Shown in pieces: positions 2,316 through 44,433 of a stretch of 51,851 nucleotides of DNA (its first letter is position 1; each line of letters begins with the position of its first letter). The stretch is from IMG/VR virus record IMGVR_UViG_2923307698_000007, positions 1-51,851 of that record. One strand, written 5' to 3'. The notes under the pieces are model-generated. The model was not told where the DNA came from, searched no databases, and saw only the letters and a program-made list of their open reading frames with translations. Source of the DNA: a virus. Its lineage: Duplodnaviria; Heunggongvirae; Uroviricota; Caudoviricetes. The position numbers and the translations under genes are program-made.

Positions 2316-3713
2316 TCAGCTGATACTGATACCTGCTGTGGATTTTTTCATCACCACAACCAGCAGATCGCTGATACTGGTTGTTGGTGTCCAGTTATTC
2401 GCTCCTGATGAAGATACGGTGAATGTCAGTGTCAGCGTCCCCTGTCCGGCAGGCATATCTATAACTGAAGAAAATACGCCCTGAGCATCCGTCGTGGACT
2501 GATTAAAAATCTCCTGACCATTGTGGGTCACTCTTAACCGGCAGGTTGAATACCAGTATGACTGTTGGTTATTACTGTTGAAATTCTCATGCTTACCACC
2601 GCGGAATAACACTGGCGGTATCATGACCTGCCGGTCAAACTTCTGATCATCACTGATTCTTACCGTGATGGTGCCACTGGCATAAGTGCTCGTGCGGGGG
2701 AAAGACTTGCTGACCGTTTTGACAATATCGCCTTCAATCTGGTTGGCTGACAGTTTCCCCTTAATCTGACAGTTCTCATTAATCGTGACGTTGTTGAGCG
2801 TCCCTGAGTTCGCATTCACACTGCCACTGATATCCGCATTTTTCGCCGTCAGTCGCCCGTCCGGCGTCAGGGAAAACGTCGGGGGGTTGCCGGATGACGT
2901 GATACTCACCGCAAACAGTCGTTTCAGGAACACGTCGTTCATGAACAGCTGATTCCCCTGCGCCACAAATAACGGCGTGCTGTTGCCGCTCTCCGGATTT
3001 ATCATCGCGATACGGTCAGCCAGCAGCAGTATGTTGCTCAGTGGCTGGCCATCAGTATCCTCAATCCCTGCACCAATCCCGGCCACATAGGGAATGCCGT
3101 CTTTCGTTTTTTGAACCTTCAGCATGTACAGCGCAGCCAGGTCATCATTTGTGTCCTTCTGCACGCGCTGTATCTGCTGTATGGTGGCGCTCTGGTTCTC
3201 CAGTGTTTTGTTGACCGTCTGTGTGATTTCATTGCGGGTTTCCGTGATGCTGGTCTTCATCTCCGCCATCTCATCTGCAAGCTGGCTGTTATCTATCAGT
3301 TCCCACAACCCCTGAGCCAGATGCAGTTTTCCTATTTTTTCCCGGAAAAATTCCAGATACCCTTCACCATCATTGCTGGGCTGCCCGCTGACTTCCACAA
3401 ACGCAGATTTCCCCACCAGGTTGACGCTGCGCACGTAAAACCAGAAATCCTTCCCGGGCTTAATGTGCGGGCCGGATACACTCCACTGACTGCCGGTCCC
3501 CAGATAACGGGCAGAGGTTTCCACCTGAGATGTGTCTGCGATTTTTGCCTCCGAAAACCAGAATTCAAACTGTACCGTCGGGTCATATACAGCCAGTTTC
3601 GGGACCGCCGTTATCTGAAAATAGCCCGGTGTCAGCTCAATCTGTGACGGCGCTGCCGGTGCGGCAATCCGGAACGATACCGACGCCGGATCGCCCTGCT
3701 GCCCCCCACGCAT
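2316..3713 (-). CDS. J: Tail tip host specificity protein J, C-terminal segment (frameshifted relative to N-terminal segment)
   Basis: Translation [18 protein letters not shown]...[10 protein letters not shown] matches recalled lambda J C-terminal half. Confidence 0.8.
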
Positions 3714-5796
3714 TTACCGCCCGGACTGTCAGCCTGTAGCTCCCCGGCGCCAGTTGCGTGAAGCGGTATGTGGTTTCCGTCGTCCGGGCCGTGCTGACCA
3801 GCCGCTCACTGCCGTCATCCGCGGCCACGGTCAGGCGAAGCATAAAGCTCACGCCCTTCACCACCTTCGGCGTGTCCCATTTCGCCTGTGCCAGATACTG
3901 ACCGTCAGCTGCGCTCACCTCCACCGTCAGGTGCTGCACTGCCGGAGGGATGACGCTGTTCAGGGTGCCTGACTGCGGCTCAAAGCTGGCCCCGTTATCC
4001 ACGATGGCTTCCTTTTCCGGTACGTGCTGCACCGCCGTGATGGCAAAGGTACCGTCCGTGTTTTCCCGGATGGAAACACAGCGGAACAGGCGACGACGCA
4101 GTGACGGCAGGGAGAGTCCCCACACACCGTATGTCTCCACGCCATCCGGCAGGGTACTGACCTGTATCCGGTCCGGCGCGGGGTGTGCGGTGATGTCCAC
4201 ACTCACCGGCTTACCGCTGCCGTTAATCAGGTTCACCGTGGCGGCACCTGTCTCCGGCAGGGTCACCTCACGGTCCAGTGTCAGGGTGCGGCTGGCGGCA
4301 TCAATGGACAGGACACGTCCGCCGGTCATGGTCCCGGCATAGTCGTTATCACAGATTTCAATAATGTCACCGGGTGTGTGACGCAGCCCCTGTGACCCGA
4401 GCGTGAAATCCACCGTCTGCGTTTCCAGCAGTCCGGTCTTTATCACCCACAGCCCGGCACGGTGGGCCTGACCGCGACTGGTGCAACCGAACGCATCCAT
4501 CTTCAGCAGGTTGCGCCCGTAGCGCAGTATGGCTTCCGGGTCTTCCACCAGTTCCGTGGAGGTCTGCCAGCCGTTCTGCGGGTCGGTGTAATTCACCTCC
4601 ACCGCCGTGTGGCGGTCCTTCAGGGCGCTGAAGCTGTAGCGAAACCCCACGCCGTTATCATCCACCACCACATCGCTGTTGGTGTACGGCCACACCACAT
4701 CCGACGGGCGGTCCTGAACGAACGTCAGCGTCTGGCCGTTCCATACCGGCATACAGCGCATCGCCGAGCAGAAATCACTGAGAACGTCCCACGCCTTACG
4801 CTGTTGTGACAGGTACGCATTAAAGGTCATCCGCGGCTCTGTGCCCCCGAAACCATCCGGGACCGTCTGGTCGCAGTACTGCGCAATGGCATACAGCGCC
4901 CATTTGTCCACGTCTGCCGCCCCCAGACGTTTTCCCATGCCGTAGCGCGGGTGGGTCAGCATGTCCCACAGGCACCAGGCTGGGTTGTTGCTGTATGCCG
5001 GTTTCAGACTGCCGTCCCAGATACCACTGTACGTGCGTTTTTCCGGGTCATAGTTTGACGGTACCTGGATGATGCGACCGCGGATATGGTAGTTCACCGT
5101 CATCTGCTGACCGCCAAACTGCTCCGCATCCACCTGCAGCCCCACAATCGCCGTGTTCGGGTAGCACTGTTTCACATCGATGATTTCGGTGTATGACGAC
5201 CAGAGCGTCTTATTCTGCAGCTGGTCCGTGGTGCTGTCCGCCGTCTCCCGGACCATCCGGATGTTAAAGGGACGGGGAGGCAGATTATCCAGAATCACCG
5301 ACGCCAGGTACTGTGAGGTGGTCTTGCCGTTAATGGTGACATCCTTTTCCGTCACCCAGTTACCGTTACGCTGCAACTGAATCAGCAGTCGGACAGAAGA
5401 GGGATTACGGTCGCCCTTTGAGGTGGTCTCCAACAGTGACTGCACCCCGAAGGTGACCCGCAGGCGGTCAATGTTCGCGGACGTAATGGTGCGCGTCACC
5501 GGCTTTGCTTTCGTCACTTCCACGCCCAGTGCGGTTTCAGCTCCGGAGGACTCAAAGCCTTCAGGTGGTGTCTGCTCCTGCTCCCCGGCGCGCCAGACCG
5601 CTGTCACACCATGTATCACAGGATTACCGTCCGTGTCCGTCAGCGGGGTTTTGTTCACCAGGATACTCTGCAGCCCCTTCACCGGACCTTCAATCGGCCC
5701 TTCACCAATCGCATCAATCACGCTCATCATCTGCGTGGACTTAAGATTGTCCTTTGCCTCAACCGGCGTGTGCGCCTTGCCGCCACCTTTGCCCAT
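3637..5796 (-). CDS. J: Tail tip host specificity protein J, N-terminal segment
   Basis: [22 protein letters not shown] start at 5794-5796 with RBS; strong similarity to recalled lambda J through residue about 690; frame ends after the G6 run at 3702-3707. Confidence 0.8.
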
Positions 5797-5828
5797 TGTC
5801 TCACCCTTTACTGTGATAACTGTTACGC

Positions 5829-5860
5829 ACAAAAACAACAGGCATCCCGGAGGATGCCTG
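5829..5860 (-). terminator. Terminator-like hairpin with U-tract just upstream of J
   Basis: 9-bp stem caggcatcc/ggatgcctg at 5839-5860, U-rich tract on minus strand. Confidence 0.4.
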
Positions 5861-5995: not shown

Positions 5996-6033
5996 CCCGC
6001 AGCCTTCGGTCACTGCGGGATTTTTTCGCTTTT
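5996..6033 (+). terminator. Plus-strand terminator-like hairpin with T-run overlapping the 3 prime end of I
   Basis: 7-bp stem cccgcag/ctgcggg with 10-nt loop followed by TTTTTT at 6021-6026. Confidence 0.4.
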
Positions 6034-6712
6034 ATGCCTGCCGCCCGATAACCACCACCTTCCCGTCACCGCCTTCATCACGGGTACTGATGTCCTGAGA
6101 GATTCGCCGGGAGCCAACCAGCATTTCCCCGTAAGGCACCGGCATCGGGTTCCCCTGGGCAATCATGTTATCCAGCGAGGAAAAGTACGTGTTCTGTCTG
6201 CCGTTATCCGTGCTTTTGTACTCCGGTACTTTAGCCTTCGGGGCCAGCATCTGAGCCACACCACCCAGTATCATGCTGGCCCCCAGTGAAAACAGCATCG
6301 TGGTGGCAGAAAAACCACCGGCTGCCAGGGCTGAACCCCATAACGCCATTGATGCCCCGGCAGTGAAGAACGACCCCACGATGGCCGCCGCCCCCAGCAC
6401 AATCTGCAGTCCGCCCTTTCCGGCTCCGGCCAGTCGCGGCACAATATGGATGACCGCCCCCTCACCCAGAGGTTCGTGAAGACGGGCGTACACCGCCTCC
6501 GGTGCCGTGTCCTCACCGCGAATACGTATCTGGTACCAGCCTTCGTTCATCTGACGGCGGAATCCCGGCACCTGTAACGACAGCGCCCGGATGGCTTCCG
6601 CTGCCGTGTTCACATACAGGCTGAGGCGGCGGCCAAATCGTTGTAAATCCCCGTGAAGGCAGATACGTGCCAGTGGCGGTGACGCCAGGCTGAATGCGTT
6701 CGTCGTTGCCAT
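6032..6712 (-). CDS. I: Tail assembly protein I
   Basis: 226 aa; MATTNAFSLASPPLARICLHGDLQRFGRR resembles recalled lambda I; Gly/Ala-rich hydrophobic C-terminal half. Confidence 0.85.
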   Translation of the reverse strand: MATTNAFSLASPPLARICLHGDLQRFGRRLSLYVNTAAEAIRALSLQVPGFRRQMNEGWYQIRIRGEDTAPEAVYARLHEPLGEGAVIHIVPRLAGAGKGGLQIVLGAAAIVGSFFTAGASMALWGSALAAGGFSATTMLFSLGASMILGGVAQMLAPKAKVPEYKSTDNGRQNTYFSSLDNMIAQGNPMPVPYGEMLVGSRRISQDISTRDEGGDGKVVVIGRQA

Positions 6713-7347
6713 TTTTCGGAATACCTCTCCCGTTTACTCAGTTGTTCAGGCAGATGGTGAAGCAGCTCACCGTTGCCGCAGTAAATGGCGGCATGGTTCG
6801 GTACCGAAGCACCAAAGCAGCACAGCAGAATATCGCCCGCCTGTGCAGAGGACAGGGGCACCCGGTAAAAGCCGGTGACCGCCATATTGTCCAGGTAAAG
6901 GTTCTGACCGTTGCGCCACCAGTCATCCCCGCGATGAAAATCCGGCATTTCAGTCCCCGCCAGATGGTATGCATCCCGGAACAGGGTGTAACAGTCCGTC
7001 ACCCCGTGCTCAAAGCGCCGTCCCGTCAGGTGCGGCACGCAGCGGAATTTGTGAATGTCACCCCGGCAGACCAGCCACCAGGGCAGTGCGCTTTTTATCT
7101 GCAGCCGCCGGTCAGCCTCGCTCAGCCAGGGCAGACCACCGGGATGACTGTGGACCAGTGCCACAATCTCCCCCTGCATCTCTGCCCGCAGCCAGTCTTC
7201 CGGTGCAATACGAAAATACGCCTCCGGCTCTGCAGAGATATTCACACAAGGGATATACCGCTCCCCCTCCGGCGTGCTTACCACGAAGCCGCACGACTCC
7301 GCTGGCGCACATCGCCGGGCGTGCGCCAATATATTGCTATAGAGCAT
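6610..7347 (-). CDS. K: Tail assembly protein K (JAMM/MPN and NlpC/P60 domains)
   Basis: HSHPGG metalloprotease motif and Cys/His motifs; start set at internal ATG 7345-7347 with AGGAG RBS; 103-nt overlap with I. Confidence 0.8.
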   Translation of the reverse strand: MLYSNILAHARRCAPAESCGFVVSTPEGERYIPCVNISAEPEAYFRIAPEDWLRAEMQGEIVALVHSHPGGLPWLSEADRRLQIKSALPWWLVCRGDIHKFRCVPHLTGRRFEHGVTDCYTLFRDAYHLAGTEMPDFHRGDDWWRNGQNLYLDNMAVTGFYRVPLSSAQAGDILLCCFGASVPNHAAIYCGNGELLHHLPEQLSKRERYSEKWQRRTHSAWRHRHWHVSAFTGIYNDLAAASACM

Positions 7348-7401
7348 GAGAACTCCTGATAAAAAACCCAGCCGAAGCTGGGTCATTTCGTTGGCAATCT
7401 G

Positions 7402-8406
7402 TTAGTAGTGATGTAGTGAAGGAGGTAATTCTTTGTTCTTAAGCCTTACCCATGCGGAAAGATTCGTTGGTCCGTCTGGCTCATTAATATCAACATCTCG
7501 TGTGTGATTGATTAAAACGTCTCTCGCCATTCCAATAACATACGAGAACTCATGACCGTAGTTGTAACATCTGCCGGAATAGTTCGATTGAATTTGCTTT
7601 AGCGCTGGATACAATTCGCGGAATAATGCCTGTGAGCGGTTGGCATAATCCCATAGCCATACAAGGCTGTTTGCTTCTTTTGCGGAAAGCTCGTTGGTGC
7701 TCTTCTCTTGTTTGCCGATTAACTCTCCTTCAAGCGGAACGCGAGCAGCAAGTGACAGAGCTTCGGTAAACTGCTCCTCGCTGATTTCTTTGTATGAACA
7801 CCCAAAATGAGATTTCAGTGACGACCACATGGTGATCATCGCCTTCGCCTGTTTTTCTTTTGGCAGAGACTGACCGCGACTCATGACGAGTTGTTTAATG
7901 GCTTCCTGCTGTTCAGTGGTGATTTTCCCCGGCAATGCCTTTTTAGCTTTGCGCGGGTTAATCACATGGCCTTTAGTCCAGTACTCGTAGAGCACATCGT
8001 CACACTCTTCCTGATACTGGATTACCTTGTCGCGGATTTCAGGGCGGACTTTGTTTGGTTGAATGCTTGAAAGCCAAGCCGCAAATTTACGAAAGGCAAG
8101 ACATGTCATTAACTGTTTACCGCCAGCAGAAGGTATTTCGATTTCCGAAATACCCTTGACAAACCTCTGTTTTAACTTAACAAATTGAGCAGCCCAAACC
8201 ATCCCCATACCTTCAACAACAGGCTTCATAGGAACATAAGGCTCATTGTTAATTCCAACCAAAAAGAGATTTGTTCCGTGGAATGGAACATTGATTGTGC
8301 GATCTGCAATTGCTAAACTAGTCATATCAGTTTTCTCGTGGTTAACTGGTAATTTAGAAGCCTCAATGGTTGCAGCCATTGAGGCTTCGCTGTTTTTAGC
8401 GACCAT
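7402..8406 (-). CDS. ant: Antirepressor Ant (P22 immI-type)
   Basis: 334 aa; antirepressor-like N- and C-terminal regions; ATG at 8404-8406 with GAGGTG RBS, overlapping the arc stop. Confidence 0.7.
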   Translation of the reverse strand: MVAKNSEASMAATIEASKLPVNHEKTDMTSLAIADRTINVPFHGTNLFLVGINNEPYVPMKPVVEGMGMVWAAQFVKLKQRFVKGISEIEIPSAGGKQLMTCLAFRKFAAWLSSIQPNKVRPEIRDKVIQYQEECDDVLYEYWTKGHVINPRKAKKALPGKITTEQQEAIKQLVMSRGQSLPKEKQAKAMITMWSSLKSHFGCSYKEISEEQFTEALSLAARVPLEGELIGKQEKSTNELSAKEANSLVWLWDYANRSQALFRELYPALKQIQSNYSGRCYNYGHEFSYVIGMARDVLINHTRDVDINEPDGPTNLSAWVRLKNKELPPSLHHY

Positions 8407-8569
8407 TCGCCACCTCTTCCCTAACACCTTTTGCCAGCAAACGAACAATTGCAGAGTTCAGAGATATACAGTCCATTTCCGCCAGGCGGCGAAGGTCTTC
8501 ATTCAGCCGTGATGGAAGGCGAAGGTTGAGTTTGATATTTTTGCGCTCAGTGAAAAGTGTATCTTGCAT
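8396..8569 (-). CDS. arc: Arc-like ribbon-helix-helix repressor
   Basis: 57-aa ORF MQDTLFTERKNIKLNLRLPSRLNEDLRRLAEMDCISLNSAIVRLLAKG (absent from ORF track because under 60 aa); GGAG RBS; stop overlaps ant start. Confidence 0.55.
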   Translation of the reverse strand: MQDTLFTERKNIKLNLRLPSRLNEDLRRLAEMDCISLNSAIVRLLAKGVREEVANGR

Positions 8570-8676
8570 TATCTAATCTCCTTTATTTGGTGCCAAAGTG
8601 ACGCCATGAAGGCCATAATGCCACTATTGAAATCGTATGGCAATATGGCACCATGATTTTTTTTGAGAGATTTGCA

Positions 8677-8997
8677 ATGGCCGAAAAACAAGTAAAAGAC
8701 TACGACAAGTTCAACCTCCGTTTTCCTGACGGAATGCGAGATGCTATAGCTGAACGAGCCAAACGAAACGGGCGCTCTATGAACTCAGAGATTGTTCAGA
8801 TACTGGAAGATGCCTTGAATGCAGAAAATACACTCGGGGAAATAGCAGATAAAATTAACAGCGTCTCGGTTCCGCTAAATGTTGATGCGCTAGTTCAACT
8901 TCAAGCCCAGGTTATCGCCATGCAAAAAGAAATACAGGAAAAGTTCAGAGAGCAGAACGAAAAGTTGAGAGAACTACTAAATAAAAAACCCACCTGA
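8677..8997 (+). CDS. mnt: Mnt-like ribbon-helix-helix repressor
   Basis: FNLRFPDGMRDAIAERAKRNGRSMNSEIVQILEDAL resembles recalled P22 Mnt/Arc N-terminal fold; divergent from arc-ant. Confidence 0.65.
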   Translation: MAEKQVKDYDKFNLRFPDGMRDAIAERAKRNGRSMNSEIVQILEDALNAENTLGEIADKINSVSVPLNVDALVQLQAQVIAMQKEIQEKFREQNEKLRELLNKKPT

Positions 8998-9013
8998 CGG
9001 TGGGCATAATCCA

Positions 9014-9712
9014 TTACTGCGAAAGTTTATTAATGGAAAGGAAACCGCCAAAATTAGCCACCATGCCGCGCATCTCACACCCGCGCATGCACTTGCTGCA
9101 TCTGTCCTTACGGATATCCGTGGTGGGGTTGTCGAACTCATCCGCCACCGCAGGACCGTTATACCCGCATTCATCTCCCCGGTAATCCCACATACAGGTG
9201 TTCGCCAGCATGATGCGACCAGGAAACAGCGCCCCGTCCGTCTCCGTCGGTGTTGCCAGCACAAACGAGGCTGTCATGGCCGTCAGCTCTGACATCTGCT
9301 CCACCACCCAGCGGTCGCTCAGCTCCTGCTCCGGGTCCGCTTCCGGATTGCCCGCCACAAAATTCACCGCATCCAGAAAACGGGCATACACCCGGCGGCG
9401 GACCACCGTGGCCCCCACCAGGCTCTGCAGGTCCTCCGCCATCCCGGTGACCAGACCAAACAGATTGGACACCGTCAGCGACGGTCTGGCACTGCTGCCC
9501 TTCCCGTTCATCTCAAAACCGCTGCCGTCAATCGGGTATACCTGATATTGCCGCCCCTGCCAGGTGACCGCCTTCCCTTTTTCATTCAGCTCATTACAGA
9601 AAAAATACCGCTCACCGCCCTGCACCGTCAGGTCAATTTCCCAGAGCACCACCCGCGGTGACTGCTCTGATTTAACCGACTCGTTCAGGCTTTCTTCATG
9701 AATATTCTGCAT
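9014..9712 (-). CDS. L: Tail tip protein L
   Basis: 232 aa, same length as lambda L; position between M and K; Cys-rich C-terminus. Confidence 0.9.
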   Translation of the reverse strand: MQNIHEESLNESVKSEQSPRVVLWEIDLTVQGGERYFFCNELNEKGKAVTWQGRQYQVYPIDGSGFEMNGKGSSARPSLTVSNLFGLVTGMAEDLQSLVGATVVRRRVYARFLDAVNFVAGNPEADPEQELSDRWVVEQMSELTAMTASFVLATPTETDGALFPGRIMLANTCMWDYRGDECGYNGPAVADEFDNPTTDIRKDRCSKCMRGCEMRGMVANFGGFLSINKLSQ

Positions 9713-10053
9713 CAGTTCACCACCTGCTCAATCGTACAGCTGAAATCACTGTACCGGACGTTATCCGTGACGCTCCACTCCCGGCATACCACCCTGACCA
9801 TCCGGTTATGTTTCGGCGGTCGCCATAAAAAGGCACGGTAACCACCATGCCACGATAAAAATTCATCCAGCCAGCACCGGGTCGCCTCATCCGTCACCCG
9901 GAATACCGCCTGAAATGTCTTCAGTTGAGGATTCAGCCCTGTGGGGCGGCGCTGTTCATAACCGTCACCAAACCGTACCCTCGCCACCGACGGTTTCTCA
10001 CTCACCTGCATCCCTTCACGCGGGACCAGATGCAGCGTTTTTATCTCAGCCAC
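9712..10053 (-). CDS. M: Tail tip protein M
   Basis: 113 aa; RVRFGDGYEQRRPTGLN and C-terminal IEQVVN match recalled lambda M. Confidence 0.85.
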   Translation of the reverse strand: MAEIKTLHLVPREGMQVSEKPSVARVRFGDGYEQRRPTGLNPQLKTFQAVFRVTDEATRCWLDEFLSWHGGYRAFLWRPPKHNRMVRVVCREWSVTDNVRYSDFSCTIEQVVN

Positions 10054-24481: not shown

Positions 24482-24814
24482 TCAGGGTGCAGAAGGACTA
24501 AAGATAAACGTTTTCTTCACGCCTTTACGCGGCCTGTCCTTCTCAAATCGCCATTTTGCCATCGCCTTTACAACCTGCTCATCAAACAGATGGTGCGGCT
24601 CTGAACGGATAAACTCAATTCGGGTGACAGTACCATCAGCACCAATATCAAACTTCACATCAACCCGTCCCTTTATATAATTTGCCGCTGCATAGGCCGG
24701 ATATTGTGGTAATGCCTTAACCAACTGTCGGGGCATATCTGTTTTATGTTGCGTACAGCCCATAACCAGAGAAGACAACAAAATAATTAACGGAAGATTT
24801 CTTTTCATTTTCAT
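24482..24814 (-). CDS. Lipoprotein with TonB C-terminal-like domain (moron at bor-like position)
   Basis: Signal peptide MKMKRNLPLIILLSSLVMGC with lipobox; start uncertain (GTG 24823, ATG 24814 or 24808). Confidence 0.5.
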   Translation of the reverse strand: MKMKRNLPLIILLSSLVMGCTQHKTDMPRQLVKALPQYPAYAAANYIKGRVDVKFDIGADGTVTRIEFIRSEPHHLFDEQVVKAMAKWRFEKDRPRKGVKKTFIFSPSAP

Positions 24815-25146
24815 TCCCGGCACAGATAAGAATAAGTCTTATTCTAACAATGCCACCCTGTCGGCCATCAATCCTCTGCTTAATGGCAACGACAATTATC
24901 CGACTTAAATCACAAATCAGACACATGACATAACAGGTCTTGCGAGGTAACACATCGTCCGGTTTCTTCCACCATCGCACCGAACCAGCGACCATGAGGG
25001 GACAACGCCGCGCTCCGTTAACGCGGTAAACCCCGGTGTGTATCGTTTTTGATTATCCCCGCACACTCGCGCAGAGGAGTCTCCCTGTCGGGCTGCGGTC
25101 TCTGTTAATGAGGGAATACAGCGACGATACGGCGCATCAGCAAAAC

Positions 25147-25605
25147 TTAGTTCAGGCACTGAGTGCGGATATAGTCCTGTGCCCCTTCCAGCTGCTTCTG
25201 CATTGTCATCAACCGTTCTCTGAGGATGAAATAATCCCGTTCAGCGGTGTCTGCCAGTCGGGGGCCGGTTGCATTATCCACGCCGGAGGTGCCGGTGGCT
25301 TCACGCACGGTACCGGAGCAGGTGGCGTTGATCCGCAGGCGCTTACGACCAGCGGCAACATCAGCACGCAGAGTTTCATTTTCAGCTCTCGCATCGGCTA
25401 ATTCCCTCGAGTATTTTGCATCGAGCGCAGCAACATCGCGCTGGCGCACCTGCATATCAGTAATGGTTGCGTTTGCCAGCTCCAGCTCTCTGGCTTTTTT
25501 ATCGCGCTGCGCTTTGTAGGTGATGACGTTATCGCGGTAATGATTCAGCCCCAGACTAAGCGCACCACAGACCACCAGCAGAATAACGGTAAACGCGGAA
25601 AGCAT
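25147..25605 (-). CDS. Rz: Spanin inner membrane subunit Rz
   Basis: N-terminal TM then coiled coil; strong similarity to recalled lambda Rz; start set at internal ATG (MLSAFTVILLVV). Confidence 0.85.
   Translation of the reverse strand: MLSAFTVILLVVCGALSLGLNHYRDNVITYKAQRDKKARELELANATITDMQVRQRDVAALDAKYSRELADARAENETLRADVAAGRKRLRINATCSGTVREATGTSGVDNATGPRLADTAERDYFILRERLMTMQKQLEGAQDYIRTQCLN
25209..25379 (-). CDS. Rz1: Spanin outer membrane lipoprotein Rz1 (embedded in Rz, +1 frame)
   Basis: MKLCVLMLPLVVSAC lipoprotein signal, Pro-rich mature part. Confidence 0.8.
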   Translation of the reverse strand: MKLCVLMLPLVVSACGSTPPAPVPCVKPPAPPAWIMQPAPDWQTPLNGIISSSENG

Positions 25606-25842
25606 TCGGTTTATGCTCACCCCACCAGCCCTGCCGAAGTCAACGCCATCCAGGTTATGGAAAGAAAAAGAACAACCAGCATTAGTGAAAATGAAATACC
25701 GACGATTACACAAAGGCCCTTCGCCAGCATTATGAGTTTGTCTGACATCTTTACCCCTTAATAGCAGTAATTAACCGGGCAACCACCCATAAAAACGGAA
25801 TCAGCCAGACCAGCAAAAATTTCCAGTCCGTTTTTATCATCT

Positions 25843-26538
25843 TCATGCTGCGGTAGCTCTCCATGCAGCAAGCAGACCAGCAATCCACTGAACACCTTTT
25901 GGGGTGAATTTAACCTGCGTAAAAGCATGACCATTGCCCGCCTCGCCCGTTTTCACGCTAAACCGCCCCGCATCCAGGTGATGCGAGTAAGGCGTCATTT
26001 TTCCAGCGAGGCGATACATTATTCCGTTCTCCAACAAAAACAGCCGGAAATCGGTTTCTTTGATACCGAGTAACTTAGCAACTTCCCGGAATCCCATCAG
26101 ACCAGATGCTTCAACATAGTTATCAACAAATTCAGCCTTCGGCGCTGCTATTGCCAGTTGATTTTCCAGCACTGCTTTCTGTTCAGCCAGTTTTGCCGCA
26201 AATCGCAACGCCTCAGGTAAAGTCCGGGGGATCTGAATACCATGCATCGCTTTGAGTCTTGCCAGCACAGAACGACGAACGGCCTTTGACTCCCTCATGC
26301 CAACGAGCATCATCTGGTCAAAATCCAGATCATAGTATGCCGTTCTTGTCTGGTTATTGTTTAACCGGAATTTTTTTCCGGTTCCATCAAGCTCTAGCTC
26401 ATCCTCAATTTTTGCAAGAAACTTACGCGGTTCATGAGGGACTTCTCCGGCTTCTGCCCGGGCTGGATTAATAATGTTATTCAGAAAATCCAGACTACTC
26501 ATGGATATTTCATGATCGATAGAAATCATCTCTTTCAT
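25843..26538 (-). CDS. Putative antirepressor (KilA-C/Ant-like domain)
   Basis: 231 aa between endolysin and Rz; C-terminal region resembles Ant/KilAC domain. Confidence 0.5.
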   Translation of the reverse strand: MKEMISIDHEISMSSLDFLNNIINPARAEAGEVPHEPRKFLAKIEDELELDGTGKKFRLNNNQTRTAYYDLDFDQMMLVGMRESKAVRRSVLARLKAMHGIQIPRTLPEALRFAAKLAEQKAVLENQLAIAAPKAEFVDNYVEASGLMGFREVAKLLGIKETDFRLFLLENGIMYRLAGKMTPYSHHLDAGRFSVKTGEAGNGHAFTQVKFTPKGVQWIAGLLAAWRATAA

Positions 26539-26811: not shown

Positions 26812-27345
26812 TTATCTGTCGATTCCCCAGCACGCCAGAGCGCTCTCCTGGTCACGACGGGATACCTGACCATAACAGTTATTTGAGCGAATACGGCAGT
26901 CTCTGCCACCGTCCTTAATCCACCAGCGAATCGCCTCGCATGCTCCCCTGCGGTCACCAGCATTAATCCGTCTGTAAAACGTCGACGGGAAACACTTACC
27001 GGGGCCAATGTTGTACGGACAGAATGACGCAATCCCCGCTTTCTGGGGTTCGGTCAGTGGCACTCTGATGTTTTTCGCCACCCATGCCAGCGCCTTATCA
27101 CGCTCAATGGCGTTAACCCGGTCGCATTTTTCCTTCGACAACTTCATGCCCGGAACGACAGGTTTACCATCCACCAGGATGGCACCGCGGCAGATGGTCC
27201 AGATACCCGCGCCATCACGGTATGCCGTGGTGTGGTTACCTTCCTTTTCATCCAGAAACTGGTCGAGGATTTCAGGCGCAGGCGCACCTGCGGCAATCAG
27301 CGCCAGAACGGCAGCCGACAGGCCGTATCTGATTTTGGTGTTCAT
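26812..27345 (-). CDS. R: SAR endolysin (lysozyme, phage 21 R-like)
   Basis: 177 aa; N-terminal signal-anchor-release helix GLSAAVLALIAAGAPA followed by lysozyme-like domain. Confidence 0.85.
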   Translation of the reverse strand: MNTKIRYGLSAAVLALIAAGAPAPEILDQFLDEKEGNHTTAYRDGAGIWTICRGAILVDGKPVVPGMKLSKEKCDRVNAIERDKALAWVAKNIRVPLTEPQKAGIASFCPYNIGPGKCFPSTFYRRINAGDRRGACEAIRWWIKDGGRDCRIRSNNCYGQVSRRDQESALACWGIDR

Positions 27346-41196: not shown

Positions 41197-41382
41197 TTAT
41201 GCCGCTTGGCGGTAAGCACTTTCTTGATACTTCAGGGCGCCAGCTGTAACGATTTCCAATCGATAGGCGTCTTTCTCTGGGATAACTTCTTTCCACTGAG
41301 AGACTGCTGCATCGCTAATGCCTAGTGCTTTAGCAACAGCACGCTGGGTTCCGAAGTGGTCAATAACATCTTTTTTGTACAT
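41197..41382 (-). CDS. cro: Cro repressor (P22-type)
   Basis: 61 aa MYKKDVIDHFGTQRAVAKALGISDAAVSQWKE... matches recalled P22 Cro. Confidence 0.85.
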   Translation of the reverse strand: MYKKDVIDHFGTQRAVAKALGISDAAVSQWKEVIPEKDAYRLEIVTAGALKYQESAYRQAA

Positions 41383-41395
41383 AGACTCGCTCCGA

Positions 41396-41458
41396 AATTA
41401 AAGAACACTTAAATTATCCACCAAGGGAATCTTAAGTCAAGTTTATTTAAGATGTCTT
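41396..41458. promoter_or_regulatory. OR operator region with P22-type palindromic half-sites (pR/pRM)
   Basis: aTTAAAGaacaCTTAAAT and ATTTAAGatgtCTTAACT palindromes between divergent cro and c2. Confidence 0.5.
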
Positions 41459-41462
41459 AACT

Positions 41463-42113
41463 ATGAATACACAACTGATGGGTGAGCGTATTCGCGCTCG
41501 CAGAAAAGAACTCAAGATTAGGCAGGCTGCCCTTGGCAAGATGGTTGGCGTGTCTAATGTTGCTATTTCCCAATGGGAGCGATCTGAAACTGAGCCCAAT
41601 GGCGAAAACCTATTGGCCTTAGCCAAGGCTTTGCAGTGCTCCCCTGATTACCTGTTGAAAGGAGAGGATAGTCTTTCAAACATTGCCTATCACAGCAGGC
41701 ATGATCCAAGAGGTTCGTATCCTCTAATTAGTTGGGTAAGCGCAGGATGTTGGATGGAAGCTGTAGAGCCATATCATAGGCGTGCAATAGATAACTGGTA
41801 CGACACAACGGTAGATTGTTCTGAAGACTCTTTTTGGCTCGACGTTAAAGGTGATTCAATGACTGCCCCGGCAGGACTGAGTATTCCTGAAGGGATGATT
41901 ATTCTCGTCGACCCAGAAGTCGAACCACGTAATGGAAAGCTGGTAGTCGCCAAACTTGAAGGAGAAAACGAGGCGACATTCAAAAAGTTAGTTATTGATG
42001 CCGGTAGAAAATTCCTGAAACCACTCAATCCACAATACCCAATGATTGAAATCAATGGGAACTGTAAAATCATTGGCGTTGTCGTTGATGCCAAGCTAGC
42101 AAACCTTCCTTAA
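41463..42113 (+). CDS. c2: C2 repressor (P22-type, LexA-like autopeptidase fold)
   Basis: 216 aa, near identical to recalled P22 C2. Confidence 0.95.
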   Translation: MNTQLMGERIRARRKELKIRQAALGKMVGVSNVAISQWERSETEPNGENLLALAKALQCSPDYLLKGEDSLSNIAYHSRHDPRGSYPLISWVSAGCWMEAVEPYHRRAIDNWYDTTVDCSEDSFWLDVKGDSMTAPAGLSIPEGMIILVDPEVEPRNGKLVVAKLEGENEATFKKLVIDAGRKFLKPLNPQYPMIEINGNCKIIGVVVDAKLANLP

Positions 42114-44196: not shown

Positions 44197-44268
44197 GTGC
44201 GGTTTTACCGCATACCAATAACGCTTCACTCGAGGCGTTTTTCGTTATGTATAAATAAGGAGCACACC

Positions 44269-44433
44269 ATGCAATATGCCATTGCAGGGTGGCCTGTTGC
44301 TGGCTGCCCTTCCGAATCTTTACTTGAACGAATCACCCGTAAATTACGTGACGGATGGAAACGCCTTATCGACATACTTAATCAGCCAGGAGTCCCAAAA
44401 AATGGATCAAACACTTATGGCTATCCAGACTAA
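44269..44433 (+). CDS. cIII: cIII (FtsH inhibitor)
   Basis: 54 aa [54 protein letters not shown] matches recalled lambda cIII. Confidence 0.9.
   Translation: MQYAIAGWPVAGCPSESLLERITRKLRDGWKRLIDILNQPGVPKNGSNTYGYPD

Follow-up and report, generated by a model that had tools for sequence, protein, structure and literature searches.

What occupies the space between tail genes L and K in a lambda-like prophage of Escherichia coli, and what might it do there? The question arises from a DNA stretch of 51,851 nucleotides (IMG/VR record IMGVR_UViG_2923307698_000007, positions 1 to 51,851; hereafter the window), which carries on its minus strand a lambda-type tail operon composed of the tape measure gene (10046-13288), M (9712-10053), L, K, I (6032-6712) and J. 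The gap between L and K in this operon measures approximately 1.69 kb and contains three open reading frames (ORFs). The initial annotation, made from the letters of the sequence alone, described a P22 immI-like mnt/arc-ant module at this position, and the description is borne out both by profile searches and by the order and strands of the genes, which are those of P22 immI. We consider it very probable that the L/K insert is a complete, mobile 'ant moron' of the P22 immI type, residing in the late tail operon of the prophage. The coordinates of its parts, and of the other features discussed, are collected in Table 1.

The largest of the three genes is ant. Both antirepressor domains are recovered in its product by profile search (Pfam P22_AR_N, 1.3e-39; P22_AR_C, 4.8e-29), the protein matches PHROG 245 'anti-repressor Ant' at 1e-107, and BLASTP aligns it with P22 Ant at 55% identity over 315 aa (E 6e-118), all in agreement with the antirepressor function proposed initially. 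The Pfam search returned no KilAC/ANT (PF03374) match for this protein, and a sequence search of the PDB found no relative of Ant. The ORF containing ant is open over 7402-8448 on the minus strand and offers two start codons of interest. Met1 of P22 Ant aligns with the ATG at 8325, and the conserved architecture of the sar-like RNA described below supports this codon as the main start. An upstream in-frame ATG at 8406, which overlaps the arc stop codon and is also present in phage Oslo, would yield a protein of 334 aa, and a longer Ant isoform may be produced from it. Judged by its ratio of non-synonymous to synonymous substitution rates (dN/dS, 0.10-0.24 against alleles 84-96% identical), ant is under purifying selection.

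The two smaller genes encode ribbon-helix-helix proteins. The Mnt-like gene stands on the strand opposite to arc-ant, as originally proposed, and its start is set at the position equivalent to which the RefSeq relatives begin. Its product shares 50% identity with P22 Mnt over 42 aa, confined to the ribbon-helix-helix part, and by sequence it finds Mnt (1mnt, 1.4e-7) and Arc (1arq, 3e-5) in the PDB; the C-terminal 55 aa look helical, judged by eye only. The Arc-like ORF on the minus strand, also pointed out in the initial annotation, passes the Pfam Arc cut-off narrowly, and its size and position match those of P22 Arc. Its identity to P22 Arc is 30% over 40 aa, and to gp18, an Arc-like protein of phage Oslo, 59%. 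The protein is 98-100% conserved in every locus with regulators of the window type, at the L/K junction and in other contexts, and its gene is preceded by a Shine-Dalgarno sequence, AAGGAG, at 8582-8577.

The presence of these genes between L and K is the result of a true insertion, as comparison with related phages indicates. In the Shiga toxin (Stx) 1 phage EH1995 the site is empty: only 5 nt separate the L stop codon from the K start, and nucleotide homology to the window ends at 7328 and restarts at 9014. Because homology to the empty-site K starts only at 7328, the first K codons, the Shine-Dalgarno sequence (AGGAG) and the ATG at 7347 must have been brought by the insert; RefSeq relatives have K beginning at the position equivalent to 7347, whereas the ORF containing K is open over 6610-7386. 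The N-terminus of K in the window reads MLYSNIL..., and positions 7329-7347 of the minus strand came with the insert and are no part of the ancestral K. Across the tail operons of related phages the insert is thus absent in Stx1_EH1995 and present in Stx phages such as 1717, and a 2.6-kb query spanning L, the cassette and K reaches at least 80% coverage in 265 of 5426 complete E. coli genomes (with a partial match somewhere in 4468). This rules out a standard, conserved component of the tail module and upholds the insertion between L and K, with ORFs at the coordinates first given.

Table 1. Features of the L/K cassette, its flanks and the related loci of the window
Feature	Position	Strand	Details
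Mobile cassette, terminator to terminator	7359-9012	both strands	~1.65 kb
ant	7402-8325	-	307 aa; Pfam P22_AR_N and P22_AR_C
Arc-like ribbon-helix-helix repressor	8396-8569	-	57 aa; first gene of arc-ant operon; Pfam Arc 1.4e-4
Mnt-like ribbon-helix-helix repressor	8677-8997	+	106 aa; alternative ATG 8653; Pfam Arc 1.8e-20
Divergent control region	8570-8676		107 bp; predicted promoters and operator-like repeats
Candidate Pant	-35 8643-8638, -10 8620-8615	-	promoter scan
Candidate Pmnt	-35 8590-8595, -10 8614-8619	+	promoter scan
Inverted repeat, 11/12	8612-8623 / 8638-8649		repeat finder; P about 0.01-0.02
Perfect 8-bp inverted repeat	8588-8595 / 8646-8653		repeat finder
sar-like antisense RNA, ~72 nt	8326-8397	+	complementary to ant ribosome-binding site and start codon
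Candidate Psar, extended -10 TGcTAAACT	8311-8319	+	sequence
Terminator-like hairpin and T-run	8988-9005	-	7 pairs then TTTTTTAT; terminator scan; predicted function
Terminator-like hairpin and T-run	7365-7384	-	3' of ant; terminator scan and sequence; then K ribosome site
Tail gene L	9014-9712	-	upstream flank of insert; Pfam Phage_tail_L 6.9e-91
Tail gene K	6610-7347	-	downstream flank; Pfam Prok-JAB 9e-16 and NLPC_P60 3e-12
KilAC-domain gene	25843-26538	-	Pfam ANT/KilAC PF03374 2.7e-28, residues 125-224 only
imm21-type primary immunity region	41197-42113		cro, OR, repressor
cro	41197-41382	-	98% identical to P22 Cro
OR	41383-41462		97% identical to P22 OR
Repressor, presumed Ant target	41463-42113	+	94% identical to P22 C2; Peptidase_S24 and HTH_3

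A sar-like antisense RNA and flanking terminator-like hairpins complete the cassette; both are missing from the initial annotation. The Rfam sar model (RF00262) gives a full-length match at 8325-8391 of the plus strand, with an E-value of 0.0022 after correction for 4227 families. The stretch folds as two hairpins (-34.5 kcal/mol, z -5.9), the second of which (8357-8388), with its T-run, scores as a plus-strand terminator. An alignment of the junction displays in all loci a conserved TTGCTAnACT, corresponding to an extended -10 element, the complement of the ant ATG, and the two hairpins. RNAalifold applied to the MAFFT alignment recovered only stem 2, where 6 of the 13 pairs carry compensatory changes; since the sequences of stem 1 vary too much for alignment, the sequence types were then folded one by one, and all seven share the same fold, with loop 1 carrying an anti-Shine-Dalgarno UUCUC or UUCCU. 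The ant frame remains open upstream, over 8326-8406, through the sar terminator hairpin, in the window and in Oslo (L006, 3501-3584) alike. Substitutions between the window and Oslo alter amino acids in this segment yet leave the RNA base pairs intact, so that the hairpin is apparently the target of selection. As for the terminators, the hairpin at the L end follows directly after the L stop codon, falls in the terminal (3') portion of the Mnt-like gene, which runs on the other strand, and is part of the shared cassette.

The region between the divergent genes has the appearance of a control region. The candidate promoters Pant and Pmnt each match the consensus at 9 of 12 positions and are arranged back-to-back over common -10 DNA. 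A search for operators yielded the two inverted repeats of Table 1 and four TGGCA/TGCCA pentamers within the 107 bp (P ≤ 3e-4); these predicted operators overlap the candidate promoters, and no sequence similarity to the P22 operators Oarc and Omnt was detected in the region. Another promoter match, at 8596-8568 of the minus strand (10/12), was rejected as Pant, as its -10 element overlaps the arc start codon.

Homology with P22 immI suggests how such a cassette would operate, and every step outlined here is drawn from it. In a lysogen, the Mnt-like repressor, expressed from its own promoter, would bind the TGGCA-rich control region and silence the divergent arc-ant promoter. Entry of the cassette into a cell lacking the cognate Mnt would leave Pant active and produce a burst of Arc and Ant, after which the Arc-like repressor, encoded first in the operon, would close Pant, while the sar-like RNA would pair with the ant ribosome-binding site and limit translation. 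Ant would then bind repressors of the CI/C2 type non-covalently and inactivate them, with the phage-21-type repressor of the prophage itself and probably those of co-resident lambdoid prophages as its targets. The terminator-like hairpins at both ends would shield the cassette from ordinary read-through, whereas Q-modified late transcription is expected to cross them, as morons in lambdoid late operons generally behave. With Q-antiterminated transcription reading through, L and K-I-J would stay expressed.

The presumed target is encoded in the same window. The initial annotation noted P22-type c2 and cro genes, and at the protein level the likeness is close; more exactly, the region is of the imm21 type, with 99.7% nucleotide identity to coliphage 21, lambda imm21 and DE3, but only 84% to P22. 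P22 Ant reportedly acts on four phage repressors, those of P22, L, lambda and 21, each of which it inactivates (PMC3121763, citing Susskind & Botstein 1975). The reported action on the phage 21 repressor makes the prophage's own repressor a plausible target, and by analogy it is plausible that Ant acts upon it.

The cassette is not confined to this prophage. The 2.6-kb query matches 19 phage records with at least 80% coverage and 96.6-97.9% identity, among them the Stx phages 1717, YYZ-2008, 2851 and Stx2a_WGPS8, whose annotations for these genes read 'antirepressor Ant' and 'Arc family DNA-binding protein'. The cassette by itself is complete in 266 of the complete E. coli genomes, which, set against the 265 with L and K attached, places this version in E. 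coli almost always at the L/K junction. Other positions are nevertheless occupied: window positions 7359-9012 are 98.7% identical in phage JLK-2012 and in locus L027, where ninE and roi flank them in the nin region, and positions 7360-9004 are about 96.6% identical in four further loci (L018, L020, L021 and L029). The flanks of L018, the sole locus of the four inspected, belong to a myovirus-type baseplate module (Baseplate hub gp41, Baseplate_J, DUF2612). In this contig (IMG/VR UViG_3300045988_018960) the 1.65-kb cassette occupies 2822-4465 at 96.7% identity, between spike-like and lipoprotein-like genes on one side and Baseplate_J and DUF2612 on the other. Most of 80 viral contigs with an Ant 83-100% identical to that of the window have ant approximately 100 bp upstream of a P22-tailspike-like gene, and these tailspike-adjacent alleles are paired with P22-type or other Arc/Mnt regulators. 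In total, the cassette or an ant allele is found with four unrelated tail architectures: at the lambda L/K junction, before the tape measure gene of an ES18-like phage, in the myovirus baseplate module and before the tailspike of P22-like phages.

Mobility is also apparent from conservation. The Arc-like, Mnt-like and Ant proteins keep 97-100% identity even at loci whose L protein, encoded next to the cassette, has diverged to 76-79%. The cassette has predicted promoters and terminators of its own and is present in some and absent from other syntenic genomes, the features by which morons are recognised; its occurrence, or that of close ant alleles, in other contexts marks it as a mobile 'ant moron', a term already in use for P22-like phages (PMC2629481). 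Our literature searches found no paper that describes or tests the L/K location. The window as a whole is a mosaic, absent as such from the complete-genome set; a map of the entire window onto E. coli OkiPb01683, suggested by a match rounded to 100%, was dropped, being collinear only around the cassette.

The closest described system is P22 immI itself (mnt, arc, sar, ant). Both possess an orthologous Ant with the two P22_AR domains, Arc-type and Mnt-type regulators with mnt divergent and arc-ant co-directional with the late operon, a two-hairpin antisense RNA over the ant ribosome site (a predicted one in the window), and a position within the late operon just upstream of a tail gene; neither has LexA control. 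The differences concern the host phage and the specificity of regulation. The window belongs to a lambda-like siphovirus of E. coli with the cassette at the L/K junction, whereas immI of P22 lies between gene 16/sieA and the tailspike gene 9. The regulators are of another specificity type: the Arc-like protein is distant in sequence, and the Mnt-like protein has 106 aa instead of 83 and resembles Mnt only in its ribbon-helix-helix part. The candidate operators of the window are TGGCA repeats, unlike the Oarc and Omnt sequences, its sar-like RNA falls below the Rfam threshold, and its arc stop codon overlaps the in-frame upstream ant ATG.

The same cassette is found at the same junction in Stx phages 1717, YYZ-2008, 2851 and Stx2a_WGPS8 and in E. 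coli O111/O157 prophages. These differ in having other immunity regions, and the window, as far as it was examined, does not represent an Stx phage. Similarly composed variants, with a small gene preceding ant and divergent regulator(s), are found in PhiR12, Oslo and JLK-2012. The PhiR12 variant, also at the L/K junction, contains a bona fide sar but has different regulators from the window, with which it shares at the nucleotide level only the C-terminal half of ant and the K flank. In PhiR12_1 (L004, 2003-4015) ant is accompanied by a 46-aa ORF and sar, and divergent ORFs of 82 and 178 aa replace the single Mnt-like gene. The ES18-like phage Oslo has a related cassette before its tape measure gene, with an Mnt-like protein 53% identical to that of the window over the N-terminal 49 aa, and the nin-region position in JLK-2012 is unlike that of the window.

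Several observations weigh against the assignment to the immI type or against the function deduced from it. The Arc-like protein scores 22.1 bits in Pfam Arc, a marginal pass over the cut-off of 20.4, and finds Arc chains in the PDB at an E-value of 0.12 only. In the C-terminal half of the Mnt-like protein, beyond residue 48, no similarity to the Mnt tetramerisation domain is detectable. The sar-like match reaches 29.5 bits, below the Rfam gathering score of 43, whereas the positive controls for the model score 97.8 bits (P22) and 69.4 bits (PhiR12). The promoters and operators of the cassette are predictions at the level of consensus sequences, and we infer which protein would occupy which site. 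In the Stx2 phage 1717, the same cassette accompanies a repressor that shares no more than 36% identity with that of the window. The cassette is for this reason not matched to the repressor or immunity type of this prophage; the absence of a match to any one immunity type fits, in turn, a broad-range antirepressor. Among 60 listed phage records with imm21-type immunity none is an Stx phage, and the listed records with the cassette at L/K are all Stx-converting phages or phages from Stx-producing hosts. Finally, P22 can complete its life cycle without Ant, and even in that phage the natural role of the protein is unclear (PMC3121763); in the Stx phage phi24B, superinfection was not measurably affected by a partial Ant homologue (PMC3064807).

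The last two reports would also agree with an inert passenger, a cassette without any role in a prophage that itself looks defective. The tail-tip gene J seems to be broken into two minus-strand frames that overlap, 3637-5838 (733 aa) and 2316-3713 (465 aa), within 2316-5838, which suggests a frameshift, so that the prophage may not form infectious particles unless the split is a sequencing error. We regard the passenger explanation as unlikely, however: all three cassette ORFs are intact, the dN/dS of ant is low, the cassette proteins are better conserved than the neighbouring L protein, and the RNA hairpins still pair by way of compensatory changes, while even a defective prophage could still act in trans. 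A different proposal would locate the main selected role in cis, with terminators and repressor-bound sites setting late transcription into K-I-J, as was suggested for tailspike dosage in P22. Two terminator-like hairpins do lie in the path of late transcription, and the cassette or its ant allele recurs in the tail operons of four tail types; but the identical cassette also occurs outside the tail genes, in the nin region, many close relatives build tails with L and K adjacent, and the same placement would result for any morons tolerated in antiterminated operons. A predominantly cis-acting role is therefore very unlikely.

Antirepressor genes outside the immunity region are likewise characteristic of SOS-controlled switches of the Gifsy, N15 or 186-Tum kind (PMC3121763), in which LexA holds ant repressed and damage to DNA sets off induction. 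The LexA-controlled antirepressors (Gifsy GfoA/GfhA/GftA, N15 AntC, 186 Tum) resemble Ant in this position and in inactivating the repressor by binding, and cross-talk between prophages through them is possible (PMC3121763), but they differ from it in protein family and size: Ant is of the large P22_AR type, not the small Gifsy type. No LexA box (CTGT-N8-ACAG, at most one mismatch) is present in 7300-9100, which excludes a Gifsy/N15-type SOS design; in addition, the cassette has dedicated Arc- and Mnt-type regulators, and the prophage repressor possesses an S24 self-cleavage domain of its own. An SOS switch is accordingly scarcely credible. Hardly any more credence is due to a toxin-antitoxin or partition-type module formed by the two ribbon-helix-helix genes and unrelated to ant. 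Weak secondary matches to HicB, FitA-like ribbon-helix-helix proteins and 'partition protein' PHROGs point in that direction, but Arc and Mnt are the best matches, no gene for a toxin or a ParA-type ATPase is found among the ORFs of 7359-9012, and the synteny with ant and a sar-like RNA is that of immI. The mobile immI-type cassette thus remains the explanation we favour.

Elsewhere in the window, the initial annotation indicated a second antirepressor-like gene in the lysis cassette. A KilAC/ANT domain and a position between the Rz gene (25147-25713) and a Phage_lysozyme gene (26812-27345) agree with this, but the N-terminal 120 aa have no Pfam match, and its domain content assigns the gene to another family (KilAC, PF03374), unrelated to the cassette ant. 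Just downstream of Rz, at the end of the lysis cassette, a moron-like gene (24482-24823, minus strand) encodes a protein with a lipoprotein-like N-terminus and a TonB_C match (5.8e-15). Rfam matches above the gathering score include STnc100 (30235-30401, minus strand, 101 bits), a tRNA (31257-31329, minus strand, 72.5 bits) and the lambda cIII thermoregulator element (44256-44314, plus strand, 88.5 bits).

An immI-type cassette at the L/K junction is of a well-understood kind and is already annotated there in published Stx phage genomes, and the value of this locus is mainly that of a clean and correctly read example. It presents a full P22-style two-part immunity in a lambda-like prophage of E. 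coli, in which a phage-21/P22-type repressor is combined with an immI antirepressor cassette, and it illustrates the passage of one 1.65-kb module among widely differing phage backbones. A speculative and rather doubtful extension is that the repeated placement in tail operons reflects more than the tolerance of morons: in polylysogenic E. coli, Ant might induce heteroimmune co-resident prophages, including Stx phages, and so couple induction with toxin release across phages. The Ant required would come from late read-through as the lytic cycle closes, or from entry of the cassette into a cell without the cognate Mnt. More generally, since proteins of the Ant type can inactivate repressors belonging to several phages of the lambdoid group, cassettes of this kind are candidates for cross-induction among the many prophages of Shiga-toxin-producing E. 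coli, a process that bears on toxin release and phage spread.

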